64,000 nucleotides of DNA from an uncultured virus (IMG/VR IMGVR_UViG_3300029705_000098) (taxonomy: Duplodnaviria > Heunggongvirae > Uroviricota > Caudoviricetes), in IMG/VR virus record IMGVR_UViG_3300029705_000098, one strand, 5' to 3'. Under the pieces are notes generated by a model, which had not been told where the DNA came from, did no database searches, and worked only from the letters and a program-made list of their open reading frames with translations. Shown piece after piece: positions 22,325 to 38,982 of this stretch. The first letter of the stretch is position 1. The number at the start of each line of letters is the position of its first letter. Position numbers and translations under genes: made by a program.

Positions 22325-22399
22325 TGGCTGAGGTGGCAGGATTCGAACCTACGAGTGTTGGAGTCAAAGACCAATGCCTTACCGCTTGGCGACACCTCA
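22325..22399 (-). tRNA. tRNA-Gln(UUG), CCA encoded
   Basis: Cloverleaf TGAGGTG/CACCTCA, anticodon loop CTTTGAC, T-loop TTCGAAT, GCCA end. Confidence 0.93.
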
Positions 22400-22479
22400 G
22401 TGTTTGCTAGTCTGTTCCTAGCAGCCAGCAAGTCCTTGAGTTTAAAGTCTGCATATGACTTGCAAGATTTAGACTGTTG

Positions 22480-22638
22480 GGGAGTAGATAAGGATTCGAA
22501 CCTTACATGAGATTATCCTCCTCGGAGCAACTTAAAAGGCTGATTTACGTTTTACTATAGCAACATAAATACTGCGCAATTAGTTGTACTTCCTAAACAT
22601 TTAAGTTTTCCGATGCAATTCCACTCTGCCACTACTCC
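22480..22638 (-). ncRNA. tRNA-shaped RNA with an 82-nt domain in place of the anticodon loop
   Basis: GGAGTAG/CTACTCC acceptor, D-arm, TCGGA/TCCGA stem, long variable arm, T-arm with TTCGAAT. Confidence 0.75.
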
Positions 22639-22644
22639 ATATTT

Positions 22645-23060
22645 TACCTACTTTCCGTCGGGTGTTGCGAACACTCGACGGGTTCGGCATCACACTCTAC
22701 CTTGTTTATATACCGCGCGGTTGAGTTGGTAAACTGGCGGTATAGGACATTCTTCCCGATGCACCGTTTAACTCTCACGAACTTTTCTCCAGTCGGATTA
22801 CTCCTGTATCGCTAGTGAGTAGAAGTTTGTCCTAAGTGGATAGTTGGAGCAACCTCAAAGTCCCTATCCGTAGACTTAATAGTTGTGTCATTGTCCCAAC
22901 TATCAAAGGCTGGTATATATCGTTTTGCCTACGCCTGACTTTGTTGCGAGCAGGTATCAGGAATGTACCTGTTTGTGTATAACAAACGTTAATCAGGTTT
23001 ACCACTTCACAAGCATACCGCATCAGGGTTTACCATTCCAATCAAAGATTGTTACACACG
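22645..23060 (-). ncRNA. Candidate large structured ncRNA inside the tRNA island
   Basis: No credible ORF. Many nested helices and a possible long-range pairing. Confidence 0.55.
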
Positions 23061-23161
23061 TTGGTGATAGGTTTTTGAAGAGATACCTAACAAACTCTTT
23101 AACAAGGCACGGCTTTAAGAATTAACAGTTCTTTGCTTTAATTGCTGTATGTGCCTTTAAG

Positions 23162-23238
23162 TGGTGCTTTCGACGAGACTTGAACTCGTAACCCTGTGAT
23201 TAAAAATCACATCTTCTAGCCGATTGAACTACGAAAGC
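23162..23238 (-). tRNA. tRNA-Lys(UUU), CCA encoded
   Basis: GCTTTCG/CGAAAGC acceptor, TGTGA-TTTTTAA-TCACA anticodon arm, TTCAAGT T-loop, ACCA end. Confidence 0.93.
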
Positions 23239-23254
23239 GTCCTGTTTATTTTAA

Positions 23255-23343
23255 ATACTCACCGAGACAAAATACGTGTGGTTAACAATCTTAGGTATCA
23301 AACAAGGAGTAATTATCTTATAAGAATATGTCTCGGTGAGTAT
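23255..23343. repeat. Perfect 15-bp inverted repeat in the tRNA-operon leader
   Basis: ATACTCACCGAGACA ... TGTCTCGGTGAGTAT. Confidence 0.85.
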
Positions 23344-23380
23344 CTTTTACTTCATCTCTCTTTCTTTTTTTGTTAAGAAC

Positions 23381-23435
23381 ATTATACTACACGATTACGT
23401 GGTACTCAATGAACTAATTGTAAACAATTTGTAAA
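23381..23435 (-). promoter_or_regulatory. Promoter of the tRNA/ncRNA/recombination operon with upstream TTTACA boxes
   Basis: TTGAGT-17-TATAAT. Upstream TTTACA-N5-TTTACA-N5-TTCATT. Confidence 0.75.
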
Positions 23436-23436
23436 C

Positions 23437-23724
23437 TTAGAAGAGTGTAGTCTGATTATCGGCAAGATGTTTTTTCCAACAAACATCTCCATACCCGCGC
23501 TGTTGCGCCTCTGGGTTTGTAAGTTTTCTCCCACATCTAATACACTTTGGGATTGATGAGCCCTTATCTAACTTATCGAACACAGACTTAACATCAACTT
23601 TTGGAATTTCCCTACAAACTCCTTTAATGCACATCGTATCTTTGAAATGCACCGTTACTTCCTCATTTATTTGCCACTCGGGTACATCCTTAATTTCGAT
23701 ATATGCTTTTACATACTTTGTCAT
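23437..23724 (-). CDS. DUF6011-like zinc-finger protein
   Basis: C.RCGRKLT.P....RGYG..C. Ends in QTTLF. Confidence 0.65.
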   Translation of the reverse strand: MTKYVKAYIEIKDVPEWQINEEVTVHFKDTMCIKGVCREIPKVDVKSVFDKLDKGSSIPKCIRCGRKLTNPEAQQRGYGDVCWKKHLADNQTTLF

Positions 23725-36323: not shown

Positions 36324-36911
36324 TTAAATATGCACTAATTTACGTTCTATTTCATTTCTTAAATCAGTGTTTGTCTTAAATCTTCCGTGAAGGACTGTAA
36401 CATCTGTAAATCCGTCACTCTTTGCTCCTCTGGCAGATACGCAAGCGTGGTCTCCTTTAATGTTTACGAATACATCGGGTGAGCCGGTTGCAAGTGAAAT
36501 ACACTCCGCTATATCTTCTGCCATTTTCTCTTGAAGTTGCAATCTCTTGGAACACAAATCAACAATTCTAGGAATTTTAGATAATCCAATTACTTCGTAC
36601 TTGCCGTCTTCAATCTGTCTTGGGATATAAGCAACTGTTACAGTCATATTAAACATCAAAGCCAAATGATGTTCACAGTGACTGTATACATTCTTCACTT
36701 CTTTAACAACAAGTGGGTCAGAAGTTGTAATGAACTTCTTGGAATACATCTTGGCGATTTCTGCATTGGTATATTTCATACCCTCAAGCAGTTCTTCCCA
36801 ATATCCTGCTACTCGTCTTGGAGTATCAACAAGTCCTTCTCGTGTCACATCTTCTCCAAATGCAACAAGTAAATCTTTAATAGCCTGTTCTACTTTTGCT
36901 TTATCCATCAT
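36324..36911 (-). CDS. folE: GTP cyclohydrolase I
   Basis: REGL.DTP.RVA, CEHH, GLSKI.R, LQLQE and H.C...RG motifs. Confidence 0.95.
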   Translation of the reverse strand: MMDKAKVEQAIKDLLVAFGEDVTREGLVDTPRRVAGYWEELLEGMKYTNAEIAKMYSKKFITTSDPLVVKEVKNVYSHCEHHLALMFNMTVTVAYIPRQIEDGKYEVIGLSKIPRIVDLCSKRLQLQEKMAEDIAECISLATGSPDVFVNIKGDHACVSARGAKSDGFTDVTVLHGRFKTNTDLRNEIERKLVHI

Positions 36912-37540
36912 ACACCTCTTTTATTAGGGTCCCATATATACTTGTGTAACTGAATTTGCATACGCCAATTATAAAGTTTGTGGCTCTTCAAAAATTCTGC
37001 AATCTCAACCAATTCAATTTTACCAAATACAGGGCTTACAAAGATTTGAGCAACAATTCCATTTTCTTCAACAAACGAAAGTGCCTGATTAAGGTCCTCT
37101 GCGCTTGATACAACAAACTTTACAACGTCTGTGGTATCAAGAGCCTTAAACGCCTCTATATTCATCTTATCAGATACTCCGCTACACTTTGTTTTGTAGT
37201 CAACGGTATACAATACTCCATCAACTTCAGGAACAATAGAACCGTTTGTTTCGACATTAACTTTGTAACCCTGTCGTACTAATTGTTCGAGTAGTGTGCT
37301 GATGCCGGGTTGAACTAAAGGCTCTCCTCCAGTAATAGTAACATTGGGACAGTGATATACTGCCATCTCATCGAGTATTTCCTGGATACTCATTACTCGA
37401 TATTCAGTTCCCTCACAAGCATATCGGCTATCACAATAAGAGCACTTAAGGTTACACCCAAAAAATCTAACAAATACGCACGGTATTCCTGCTCTTGCGC
37501 CTTCACCTTCGATACTGTAAAAAATCTCATTTACTCTCAT
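36908..37540 (-). CDS. queE: 7-carboxy-7-deazaguanine synthase (radical SAM)
   Basis: EIF.SI.GEG, CNLKCSYCD, TGGEP, ETNG and QLHK motifs. Confidence 0.95.
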   Translation of the reverse strand: MRVNEIFYSIEGEGARAGIPCVFVRFFGCNLKCSYCDSRYACEGTEYRVMSIQEILDEMAVYHCPNVTITGGEPLVQPGISTLLEQLVRQGYKVNVETNGSIVPEVDGVLYTVDYKTKCSGVSDKMNIEAFKALDTTDVVKFVVSSAEDLNQALSFVEENGIVAQIFVSPVFGKIELVEIAEFLKSHKLYNWRMQIQLHKYIWDPNKRGV

Positions 37541-37543
37541 AAA

Positions 37544-37897
37544 TCACTCCTCAAGGTCGTAAGTTGCGATGTTTCCTTCACTCTCTTGGACCGTTACTCG
37601 ATAACAATAGCCTACCTCACATATCTTAGTAACCTCATCACAAATCCATCGTGCTAAATTCTCTGCGGTAGGGTTGAAGTCAACAACATCGTTGATGAAC
37701 TGGTGGTCAATTTTATCGCTGATTACTTCCTTAATCTTCTTGAAATCGACAATCATTCCATAATCGGTTAATCTATTTGCTTTACAGGAAATAGTAATAA
37801 TCCAGTTATGGCCGTGTATATTTTTACACTTACTCTCATAAGGAAGATTAAGATAATGTGCTCCTGCAATCTCTAATCTTTTTGTTACGTAATACAT
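37544..37897 (-). CDS. queD: 6-carboxytetrahydropterin synthase
   Basis: AH.L, C...HGHNW, DH and PTAEN motifs. Confidence 0.95.
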   Translation of the reverse strand: MYYVTKRLEIAGAHYLNLPYESKCKNIHGHNWIITISCKANRLTDYGMIVDFKKIKEVISDKIDHQFINDVVDFNPTAENLARWICDEVTKICEVGYCYRVTVQESEGNIATYDLEE

Positions 37898-38278
37898 TTA
37901 CTTTTCCTCCATTTCCCACGGAAATACAATCCAATTATCTTCTTTTCTACATAAATAATTATCGGGAACTACTCCCAGCGTGTTGTGTTTATAATACATT
38001 GTTGCTATTTTGTAGTCTTGAGCCTTGTCACCCGAACTATTCTTAACGTAATGAAGTAAGGACTCTCCTGTGTCACAAATATCATCTACAATTAAACACC
38101 CAGGTGCAGGACTCATAAGCAAAGGAATTTTCAGTTTATGAGAAAGCATAACTGCCAGTACCAATCCGCCTCTAGGGAGACCATATACCCCGCTATACTT
38201 TATTCCCTTACGTCTGCTAATGTCTGTCATATAATTAACAAACTCTTCGACTTGCTTCCAAGTTACATATTCTTTCAT
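37898..38278 (-). CDS. Type I phosphoribosyltransferase (Gpt-like)
   Basis: RGG loop, LIVDDICDTGES PRPP motif, C-terminal WIVFPWE. Confidence 0.88.
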   Translation of the reverse strand: MKEYVTWKQVEEFVNYMTDISRRKGIKYSGVYGLPRGGLVLAVMLSHKLKIPLLMSPAPGCLIVDDICDTGESLLHYVKNSSGDKAQDYKIATMYYKHNTLGVVPDNYLCRKEDNWIVFPWEMEEK

Positions 38279-38280
38279 AC

Positions 38281-38982
38281 TTAATCTCCTATCGCAGGGT
38301 CTTTGATACCATTTTCTTCAAATGCCTTTGCTCTATCAATACAAGTACCACATTTTCCACAAGGCTTATCGCCACCCTTATAACAACTCCAAGTAAGATG
38401 ATAAGGAGTATTAAGAGACAACCCCAATGAAACTACTCCTGCCTTATTAAGTCGTACAAGCGGTGCTACAAGATGAACCTTATTGTAAGTTCCAATAGAT
38501 ATTGCGCTATCCATAGCAGATGTAAATTCCTCTGAACAATCAGCGTAGGCCTCTCCCGCGGCATCATCTGCGTGTGCTCCTAAATAAATATCAACATAAT
38601 CATCTGGATACAAAGACATAGCAAGTGCCGCAACTGCCGACAACATTAACCCATTTCTAAAAGGAACATATGTCGTAACCATTCCCTCTCCGTTTTTTGC
38701 TATCTGCTCGGCGTATGAAAGTTCAGGAACTTCTTCTGTTGACTTGCTCAATAACGGACAATTACTATCGTCCATTATGTGAGTATTGGATAGGTCAATA
38801 ACACGATGAGATACCCCAAAGAAGTTTGCTATCTTCTCTGCACACTCTAACTCCTTACTATGTTTCTGCCCATAAAATACGGAAACAGTAGTCACGTTTT
38901 GTACTCCCACATCTCTGATTGCAATAGAGATACACGTTGTGGAATCTACTCCTCCACTACTCAAAACTAGTGCTTTTCTCAT
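38281..38982 (-). CDS. queC: 7-cyano-7-deazaguanine synthase
   Basis: SGGVDS, YGQKH, YVPFRN, Y.DC and TWSCY...CGKCGTC motifs. Confidence 0.95.
   Translation of the reverse strand: MRKALVLSSGGVDSTTCISIAIRDVGVQNVTTVSVFYGQKHSKELECAEKIANFFGVSHRVIDLSNTHIMDDSNCPLLSKSTEEVPELSYAEQIAKNGEGMVTTYVPFRNGLMLSAVAALAMSLYPDDYVDIYLGAHADDAAGEAYADCSEEFTSAMDSAISIGTYNKVHLVAPLVRLNKAGVVSLGLSLNTPYHLTWSCYKGGDKPCGKCGTCIDRAKAFEENGIKDPAIGD

Follow-up and report, generated by a model that had tools for sequence, protein, structure and literature searches.

The locus examined here raises the question of what lies between the tRNA genes of an uncultured caudovirus (IMG/VR record IMGVR_UViG_3300029705_000098), of which a stretch of 64,000 nt, referred to below as the window, was analysed. 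A first-pass annotation, made from the sequence alone, had proposed that positions 22645–23060 encode a single, ornate non-coding RNA of about 400 nt, either related to the large phage RNAs GOLLD and ROOL or representing a new class. The present analysis points to a different organisation. The gap, which on the minus strand extends over 523 nt from 23161 to 22639, is probably (at a rough probability of 0.6) a string of tRNA-sized non-coding modules within a phage tRNA operon, and not a single fold. The modules lie on the strand of the tRNAs, downstream of one promoter-like site and with no terminator-like site in between; three of them, which represent families defined in this analysis (M1, M2 and D1), recur on the tRNA strand of the tRNA arrays of other phages, where they are spaced like tRNAs; and blocks exchanged between strains have edges that coincide with module edges. 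The three modules are as follows.

23104–23157, minus strand: M1, a clamp helix of AAGGCAC (23157–23151) and GUGCCUU (23110–23104), starting 5 nt after tRNA-Lys
23062–23096, minus strand: M2, a hairpin (AGUUUGUUAGGU-loop-ACCUAUCACCA) with a stem of 7–8 bp, followed by CCA
22739–22834, minus strand: D1, an element of 96 nt with relatives in three other viral contigs

Conserved modules in the gap

A relaxed BLASTn search (E ≤ 1) of phage records with the gap as query returned one match, to Bacillus phage vB_BcoS-136, with 23/23 identity to the first 23 nt after tRNA-Lys (23161–23139, minus strand). The matching site is an unannotated 173 nt gap between tRNA-Tyr and tRNA-Leu, and the match is oriented as these tRNAs are. 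With a 17-mer of M1 as seed, 27 loci were retrieved from viral contigs; among the 28 loci that include the Bacillus phage, GTGCCTT occurs 42–128 nt downstream in 20 and same-strand tRNAs lie nearby in 19, while the remaining loci look like chance matches in coding DNA. A scan for the core ACAGC[AG]A[ACT]T, from which the near-duplicates L102, L111, L113, L116, L124, L127, L128, L129 and L133 were dropped, gave 52 sites, and a perfectly complementary heptamer (G-U allowed) was found 25–160 nt downstream in 37 of them compared with 3 upstream. The helix occurs in 13 sequence variants (e.g. UAGACAC/GUGUCUA, AAGGCGC/GCGCCUU and AAGACUC/GAGUCUU), the G-U pairs of which lie on the tRNA strand. In 17 aligned short forms, which had been preselected for a partner, all 119 of 119 cells are paired and six of the seven pairs change on both sides.

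M1 elements are 50–141 nt long; 12 of the 37 end 7–13 nt before a tRNA and 8 start 2–29 nt after one. Read by eye, the contents of the clamp differ among phages: some elements enclose only a small hairpin, others a complete tRNA body, and others again a tRNA body that is permuted, with the T arm first, a closed acceptor-like stem next and the D arm last. The long forms with a tRNA-like domain are those of L097, L098, L099, L104, L109 and L117. In the window, the 5' clamp strand is followed by AUACAGCAAUU and the clamp encloses a small hairpin with a 7 nt loop, CUGUUAA, that appears similar to an anticodon loop. Segment 23157–23104 combines the features by which the family is defined: the covarying 7 bp helix, the motif (N)NACAGCAAYU directly after its 5' strand, and a location within a phage tRNA array on the strand of the tRNAs. 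Of the three families, M1 has the widest distribution and is carried by about twenty uncultivated phage contigs and one cultivated Bacillus phage, the range extending from this soda-lake phage to gut phages. The cultivated phage, vB_BcoS-136 (L097, MH884508.1, 53907–57929), has 7–8 M1 elements in unannotated gaps of its 18-tRNA cluster (locus positions about 400, 467, 1416, 1611, 2003, 2482, 2991 and 3300), several of which enclose tRNA-like bodies. The strict ACAGCAAYU motif implies a specific partner. A separate observation concerns the phage of L099, where a full-length ROOL (L134 260–885, minus strand, equivalent to G409:C1:16959–17584) lies beside the M1-bearing tRNA array.

Over 104 nt, the unit of M1 and M2 has 77% identity to L115. 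M2 of the window (23096–23062) reads AGUUUGUUAGGUAUCUCUUCAAAAACCUAUCACCA, and nine copies are present in four contigs (one in the window, four in L115, three in L125 and one in L128). Across these copies, 70 of 72 helix cells are paired, compared with 25–60% in slid controls, and three pairs have changed on both sides, with G-U intermediates on the tRNA strand. Every copy ends in CCA, after which the next module or a tRNA look-alike begins immediately. The copy in the window shows the features that define the family, namely AGUUUG-N-UAGGU, a loop of 11–13 nt, ACCUAUCA, CCA and the covarying helix. Since a stem of 7–8 bp followed by CCA resembles the acceptor end of a tRNA, M2 may be a processing mark. 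Two further hairpins were considered as second and third copies in the window and rejected, as 22905–22876 resembles the 5' arm of M2 only and 22870–22835 fails to align.

D1 is the only part of 22645–23060 with relatives elsewhere. Its identity is 87.5% to L128/L133, 86.3% to L132 and 81.3% to L130 (E 1e-27 to 3e-18). In L128, a copy of M2 precedes the 92 nt element that matches window positions 22834–22739 (87.5%, E 1e-27). A seed search yielded two further copies (L130 and L132) and one chance match (L131), and a covariance model found no further copy in 30 sources. The relatives sit 2–3 nt after a CCA end within tRNA arrays; in both L130 and L132, D1 begins 3 nt behind a tRNA that ends in CCA, and the copy of L132 extends to 4 nt before tRNA-Thr. 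As it stands alone between tRNAs in these two contigs, D1 is an independent, tRNA-sized unit of tRNA arrays, and the window element agrees with the others in length (~92–96 nt), in identity (>80% to the copies of L128, L130 and L132) and in its place after a CCA end. The predicted fold is a three-way junction with a GUAA-capped hairpin and a near-palindromic hairpin, CGGUGCAUCG. The RNAalifold consensus has 24 pairs, two of them compensatory (U-A to C-G, and G-U to U-A in the near-palindromic hairpin).

None of the Rfam 15 models reaches its gathering threshold on M1, M2 or D1 in the window or in 12 M1-bearing loci, a comparison that, of the M2- and D1-bearing loci beyond the window, covered L115 alone. 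A description of the three families was not found in a literature search.

Variation between strains

Strains were compared using DNA contigs of sequencing runs, in which the uncovered stretches of X6, X7 and X9 are uninformative. Strain X9 retains 22741–23448 with 27 substitutions and 4 indels, and 22405–22740 is replaced by 293 other letters. The border of the replacement, 22740/22741, is the 3' edge of D1. The counts per module given below are among the differences listed for X9, which do not include 3 of the 27 substitutions.

23161–23061, M1 and M2: 2 differences in 101 nt
23060–22974, A1: 2 differences in 87 nt
22973–22906, A2: 6 differences in 68 nt
22905–22835, two hairpins: 8 differences in 71 nt
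22834–22741, D1: 1 difference in 94 nt

D1 is the least-changing part between strains. Of the 19 listed differences in 22741–23161, 14, among them the C inserted behind 22942, fall in 22835–22973, the site of the most conspicuous hairpins of the first-pass annotation. When the 18 listed substitutions were compared with random sets of the same kind, 28–72% of the random sets preserved the predicted fold equally well or better, on either strand.

Genomic setting and remaining segments

The window is a segment of a phage genome that encodes portal, terminase, DNA polymerase, helicases, clamp loaders and a UvsX-like recombinase. Positions 22645–23060 are in the replication module, where every surrounding gene is on the minus strand, and within a gene-free stretch of 1.25 kb that is bounded by a DUF6011 open reading frame (ORF; 23724–23437) and the gene for a Cas4-like exonuclease (22188–21394). 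Besides the three conserved modules, this stretch contains the following features, some of them predicted from minimum free energy (MFE) folds.

23381–23409, minus strand: sigma-70-type promoter-like site (TTGAGT, 17 nt, TATAAT; 10/12 matches), upstream of the entire RNA cluster
23254–23344, minus strand: leader hairpin with a perfect 15 bp stem and a 59 nt loop (inverted repeat I1), between promoter and tRNA-Lys
23162–23238, minus strand: tRNA-Lys(UUU), CCA encoded (ARAGORN; Rfam tRNA model, 63.4 bits)
22974–23059, minus strand: A1, a predicted hairpin domain of ~86 nt closed by GUGUGUAACAA/UUGUUAUACAC (MFE fold)
22835–22973, minus strand: A2 and two hairpins (the CAGGTA/TACCTG nest, AATAGTTG/CAACTATC and GGATAG/CTATCC), a fast-evolving filler
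22639–22738, minus strand: B, two hairpins (UAUACCGC/GCGGUAUA and CCGUCG.../...CGACGG), reaching the tRNA look-alike and replaced in X9
22478–22638, minus strand: unannotated type-II tRNA look-alike (22638–22481 plus CCA; MFE fold), reported by ARAGORN only with introns allowed
22325–22399, minus strand: tRNA-Gln(UUG) (ARAGORN and Rfam), the sole RNA gene of the cluster common to the closest relatives

The relatives L033 and L005 share the surroundings of the promoter-like site (23438–23378), and between the site itself (23409–23381) and the exonuclease gene the minus strand has no terminator-like site. The strand that matters for any RNA product is thus the minus strand, and the simplest view of the gene-free stretch is one tRNA operon. 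The leader hairpin has a local z-score of −2.1 to −2.5 in sliding-window folding, and a search for its homologues returned none. Its loop has complements in the downstream modules (23278–23292/23045–23059, 23291–23299/23082–23090 and 23305–23313/22797–22805, the last in D1), and each of these (I3, I11 and I12) is at or near chance expectation. Behind the promoter, 23345–23360 (minus strand) has a Shine-Dalgarno-like AAGAGAG followed by ATG AAG TAA, and looks like the stump of a 106 aa ORF carried at this place by L033 and L001. The idea that the gap itself is a remnant of that ORF was rejected, as there was no tBLASTx match. Elsewhere in the window, a preQ0 (7-deazaguanine) run at 36324–38982 (minus strand) comprises GTP cyclohydrolase I, a radical-SAM QueE-like protein, a PTPS/QueD-like protein, a phosphoribosyltransferase-like ORF and QueC; phage 7-deazaguanine gene sets serve DNA modification.

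The tRNA look-alike has a perfect 7 bp acceptor stem, a D arm, a long variable arm, a T arm and an intact CCA. An insert of ~78 nt replaces the anticodon loop, and the MFE fold predicts a cloverleaf with an extended anticodon arm. It was missed by ARAGORN under default settings and by the Rfam tRNA model, and because it abuts the start of 22645–23060 the true gap is 23161–22639. Related sequences (G[AG]AGUAGUGGC...CUACU[UC]C, 93–188 nt) occur in the window and in L115, L125, L128 and L130; their acceptor, D and T arms are alike, and their middles are variable and of very different length. The substitutions listed for strain X8 at 22506, 22509 and 22513, together with an insertion behind 22613, fit the cloverleaf when judged by eye. 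Over 30 nt, 22897–22926 resembles 22528–22553 (minus strand) in the insert of the look-alike, with a score of 26 compared with 18.7 ± 2.3 for shuffles, and each of these segments is able to form an anticodon-arm-like hairpin.

For A1 (23059–22974), 22973–22835 and B (22738–22639), no relative was found in any search. A1 contains both copies of UGGUAAACC, the X9 differences in 22835–22973 disrupt predicted pairs, and together these segments carry most of the helices noted by the first-pass annotation. In L130, a hairpin that follows D1 (GCGGUAUAUAAA) is similar by eye to one of B.

Searches for homologues of the gap in its entirety were unsuccessful. Among INPHARED phages (E ≤ 1e-5) only tRNA-Gln was matched, and among plasmids only tRNA-Lys. 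No match in the gap was obtained against 76 related loci (BLASTn and tBLASTx), nothing significant against the whole records G001–G006, and six short chance-level matches, none at a tRNA, among 401 genomes of the order of G004. Three patterns (the pair of GTTTACC copies, a 28-mer and the look-alike's 3' end) gave no match when viral contigs were scanned, and relatives of the flanking clamp-loader gene were not found in viral contigs. A decayed tRNA array was considered as the main explanation of the gap and rejected: a scan for T arms with acceptor pairing found none in the gap, although it does detect the known tRNAs as well as the aberrant one of L001, and the gap resembles tRNA-Lys and tRNA-Gln no more than shuffles do. 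The Rfam tRNA model (RF00005) has no match at E ≤ 10 within 22639–23161.

Interpretation of the gap

If the gap is a string of tRNA-sized modules, the operon would be transcribed as one precursor from the promoter at 23409–23381, and the maturation enzymes of the flanking tRNAs (RNase P for the 5' ends, trimming back to CCA for the 3' ends) would also free the modules as small passenger RNAs of ~55–100 nt. M2, as a stem with (A)CCA, would mimic a tRNA acceptor end and act as a processing or punctuation mark between non-tRNA modules. M1 would be a Y-RNA-like clamp that holds a permuted body, a whole tRNA body or a hairpin in other phages and takes the hairpin form in the window. The released RNAs might then act as decoys or scaffolds by binding the proteins that usually deal with tRNA.

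A number of points weigh against this interpretation. Transcription of the modules, the ends of the RNAs and their cleavage are predictions, and action as a decoy or scaffold is conjectural. The window yielded no partner protein. A gene for Ro60/TROVE (PF05731) was found in 0/5 M1-bearing phage records, four of them at least 90% complete (the control was positive in 2/14 genomes), and in none of the 55 of 114 listed window ORFs that were scanned. Segments A1, A2 and B have no relatives and so may be meaningless. Regarding M1, the contrast of 37 with 3 is the sole unbiased figure, because the aligned rows were preselected for a partner, and the conservation of the 17-mer is partly by construction, because the loci were seeded with an exact 17-mer. 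M2 comes from four contigs only, and 14 of 500 shuffles reach the values observed for it; of the two M2-like hairpins in the window, neither has a CCA tail and one cannot be aligned to M2. The covariation of D1, which is drawn from four similar sequences, is not beyond that of shuffles (57–102 of 500 reach it). Lastly, mosaic recombination, and not selection, could account for how little M1, M2 and D1 differ between strains.

A more far-reaching form of the same interpretation is put forward tentatively. M1, M2 and D1 may be three undescribed families forming a phage 'tRNA-mimic operon', in which M2 would be an acceptor-stem microhelix with CCA by which RNase P and the 3' trimming enzymes could punctuate RNAs other than tRNAs, and M1 a Y-RNA-like clamp, independent of Ro60, displaying an anticodon arm or a tRNA body. 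The released RNAs would titrate host enzymes directed at tRNA, such as the anticodon nucleases of anti-phage defence.

An alternative, judged unlikely, is that the whole gap is left over from tRNA genes that were gained, lost and recombined, with M1, M2 and D1 being recombination-prone repeats or recent transfers that have no role as RNA. The history of the locus provides material for this explanation. Relatives L005, L006, L033 and L082, whose exonucleases are 72–85% identical, share the promoter region and have tRNA-Gln only, lacking tRNA-Lys, the gap sequence and the tRNA look-alike, and in L033 and L001 the 106 aa ORF follows the promoter instead; roughly 23377–22413 is therefore a lineage-specific insertion. 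At the same spot, unrelated G+C-rich inserts are found in L001 and L004. That of L001 (exonuclease 71% identical) is a different gap of 563 nt (1599–2161, 44% G+C) between tRNA-Gln and tRNA-Met, and includes an aberrant tRNA-like sequence of 121 nt (1693–1813) with a 7 bp acceptor stem, a T arm and a large insert. That of L004 (33–214), the closest relative with an exonuclease 92% identical, has 180 nt (49.5% G+C), precedes tRNA-Gln and includes an acceptor-like stem around a T arm (a minihelix). The block is a mosaic between strains, the 30 nt similarity of 22926–22897 to the insert of the look-alike exceeds that of shuffles (26 vs 18.7 ± 2.3), and natural variants do not protect the predicted fold. 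Debris of this kind, however, would not be expected to maintain the pairing of M1 through 13 variants with ACAGCAAYU fixed in distant hosts, to place G-U pairs on the tRNA strand, or to leave D1 with 1 strain difference in 94 nt when the adjoining 139 nt have 14. A second degenerate tRNA-like sequence was noted upstream in L001 (1238–1330), and its T arm is shared with the look-alike of the window.

It is improbable that the inverted repeats of M1 and M2 function as DNA, marking recombination or cassette borders of an integron-like or homing type, with any RNA being incidental. The very different contents bracketed by M1 (hairpin, whole or permuted tRNA body), the coincidence of exchange points with module edges and the whole-module differences between the arrays of relatives would all suit such sites. 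Yet no recombinase or endonuclease gene adjoins the cluster, several helix variants use G-U pairs that would be A-C on the other strand, M1 is always oriented as the tRNAs are, and its long forms show the order of YrlA RNAs (T arm, acceptor-like stem, D arm).

The proposed single RNA and coding potential

A single large, ornate RNA of the ROOL or GOLLD type, about 400–500 nt in length, is disfavoured by the evidence and considered quite improbable. The helices from which it was proposed do exist. On the plus strand they comprise CCGTCG (22655) with CGACGG (22676), GCATC (22687) with GATGC (22758), TATACCGC (22709) with GCGGTATA (22737), GGATAG (22838) with CTATCC (22864), and AATAGTTG (22878) with CAACTATC (22897), the first position of which sets A opposite C. 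The nested CCTGA/TCAGG, TTTGTT/AACAAA and CAGGTA/TACCTG are likewise present at 22934–22997, as are the loop TGGTAAAC (22727) and its two complements GTTTACCA (22997 and 23028), which would provide a long-range interaction. The location between tRNAs was also correctly recognised, with tRNA-Gln and tRNA-Lys flanking the interval on the minus strand and the tRNA look-alike abutting its start. Size, a G+C fraction of 0.43–0.45 (0.30–0.37 in most other non-coding gaps), the position at phage tRNAs and the gut/rumen-type origin of the sample resemble ROOL (PMC5737381), and the genuine ROOL beside the tRNA array of one M1-bearing phage has been mentioned above.

The folding of the 416 nt interval, though, is no better than that of ordinary sequence of the same phage. 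Its MFE z-score against dinucleotide shuffles is −2.22 on the minus and −2.52 on the plus strand, so that there is no strand asymmetry, and 24 other 416 nt windows of the phage average −0.99 (standard deviation 1.15), with 3 of the 24 at or below −2.2. In 150 nt sliding windows, z lies between +0.8 and −3.0 and is never lower. The 9-mer GGTTTACCA, with up to one mismatch, is not enriched (11 in the window vs 13.7 expected). With Rfam 15, at the gathering score as well as at E ≤ 10 (1301 nt and 601 nt, both strands), only the two tRNAs were detected and, even at E ≤ 10, nothing within the gap. This negative is meaningful for ROOL (RF03087, threshold 99.1 bits), because the same tool gives 323.2 bits for the genuine ROOL at L134 885–260; GOLLD (RF01998) was also without a match at E ≤ 10, the positive control being one for ROOL and none for GOLLD.

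The strain data also speak against a single fold. X9 drops 22405–22740 and retains the rest, and this replacement cuts the helices GCATC/GATGC and TATACCGC/GCGGTATA and removes TGGTAAAC. On the plus strand, several X9 substitutions disrupt pairs with a predicted probability above 0.9 in the nest at 22934–22997, and three of the five helix groups of the first-pass annotation (those at 22835–22997) sit in the fastest-changing segments. Within 22645–23060, conservation elsewhere is limited to D1, which stands alone between tRNAs, and the best-supported conserved elements, M1 and M2, lie at 23062–23157, just beyond the end originally proposed. The interval thus consists of modules with separate histories. 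What remains of the suggested relative or new class is the presence of conserved RNA elements that are absent from Rfam, and these are not one large RNA.

Non-coding status, in turn, was borne out. Four ORFs of at least 40 aa are present in the span (22832–23023, minus strand; 22836–22982, plus strand; 22883–23125, plus strand; and 22644–22778, minus strand, 44 aa). An additional C behind 22942 in X9 and a 1 nt deletion at 23072 in another strain shift the first three; the non-coding call for the 44 aa ORF, in which no indel is listed, comes solely from empty searches. The existence of the 63 aa (22832–23023, minus) and 80 aa (22883–23125, plus) ORFs notwithstanding, the proposal that they are genes for small proteins is highly improbable on account of these frame shifts and of the lack of any Pfam or PHROGs match (E ≤ 0.1) for ORFs of the stretch and of any tBLASTx match of the gap to 76 related loci.

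Comparison with known systems

As far as the interval 22645–23060 was first described, the result is a negative one, in that it is not a giant RNA of the ROOL/GOLLD type. It shares with these RNAs (Weinberg et al. 2017, PMC5737381) the features of being non-coding, G+C-enriched, tRNA-adjacent and carried by phages of gut/rumen-type habitats, and one phage (L134) has both ROOL and M1 elements. It differs in being modular and partly replaceable, and not one collinear conserved unit.

A closer parallel is provided by the YrlA Y RNAs (RF02553), which have a tRNA-like domain of permuted architecture and a 5' motif, GNCGAAN0-1G (Chen et al. 2014, PMC4201824). M1 and YrlA are both tRNA-sized elements in which the 5' and 3' ends form a stem and the 5' side carries a conserved motif; in other phages, long M1 forms likewise enclose a T arm, a closed acceptor-like stem and a D arm, in that order. 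Three of these long forms (L098 900–1011, L099 918–807 and L104 653–559) align over their full length to the Rfam model of YrlA, with 27.7–34.3 bits. However, the long forms overall score 23.8–34.3 bits compared with a gathering score of 69, and M1 of the window, for which the same threshold of 69 bits applies, has no match at E ≤ 10. Its 54 nt enclose one small hairpin and no tRNA-like body. The motifs also differ, M1 having (N)NACAGCAAYU; in the window it reads AAGGCACAUACAGCAAUU, without the GNCGAA of YrlA. M1 elements are situated inside tRNA arrays, whereas YrlA lies beside rsr, and a Ro60/Rsr (TROVE) gene within about 4 kb on the same strand was not found for the M1 phages or among the window ORFs scanned.

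Phage tRNA clusters are usually annotated as tRNAs with empty spacers, and in the present case the spacer consists in part of conserved RNA elements. If some of these are mimics of parts of tRNA that are freed by tRNA processing, they would add a class of phage small RNAs and could bear on tRNA-targeting defence and counter-defence; vB_BcoS-136, as a cultivable phage with M1 elements, offers a test system. The tRNA gene cluster of phage T4 yields stable non-tRNA RNAs, and tRNA 'punctuation' is known to cut polycistronic transcripts. The operon described here would be similar to both in that small RNAs would be co-transcribed with tRNAs and freed by tRNA-processing enzymes. M1, M2 and D1 may be regarded as conserved families outside Rfam of a tRNA-mimic or Y-RNA-like kind, some of them probably mimicking parts of tRNA.

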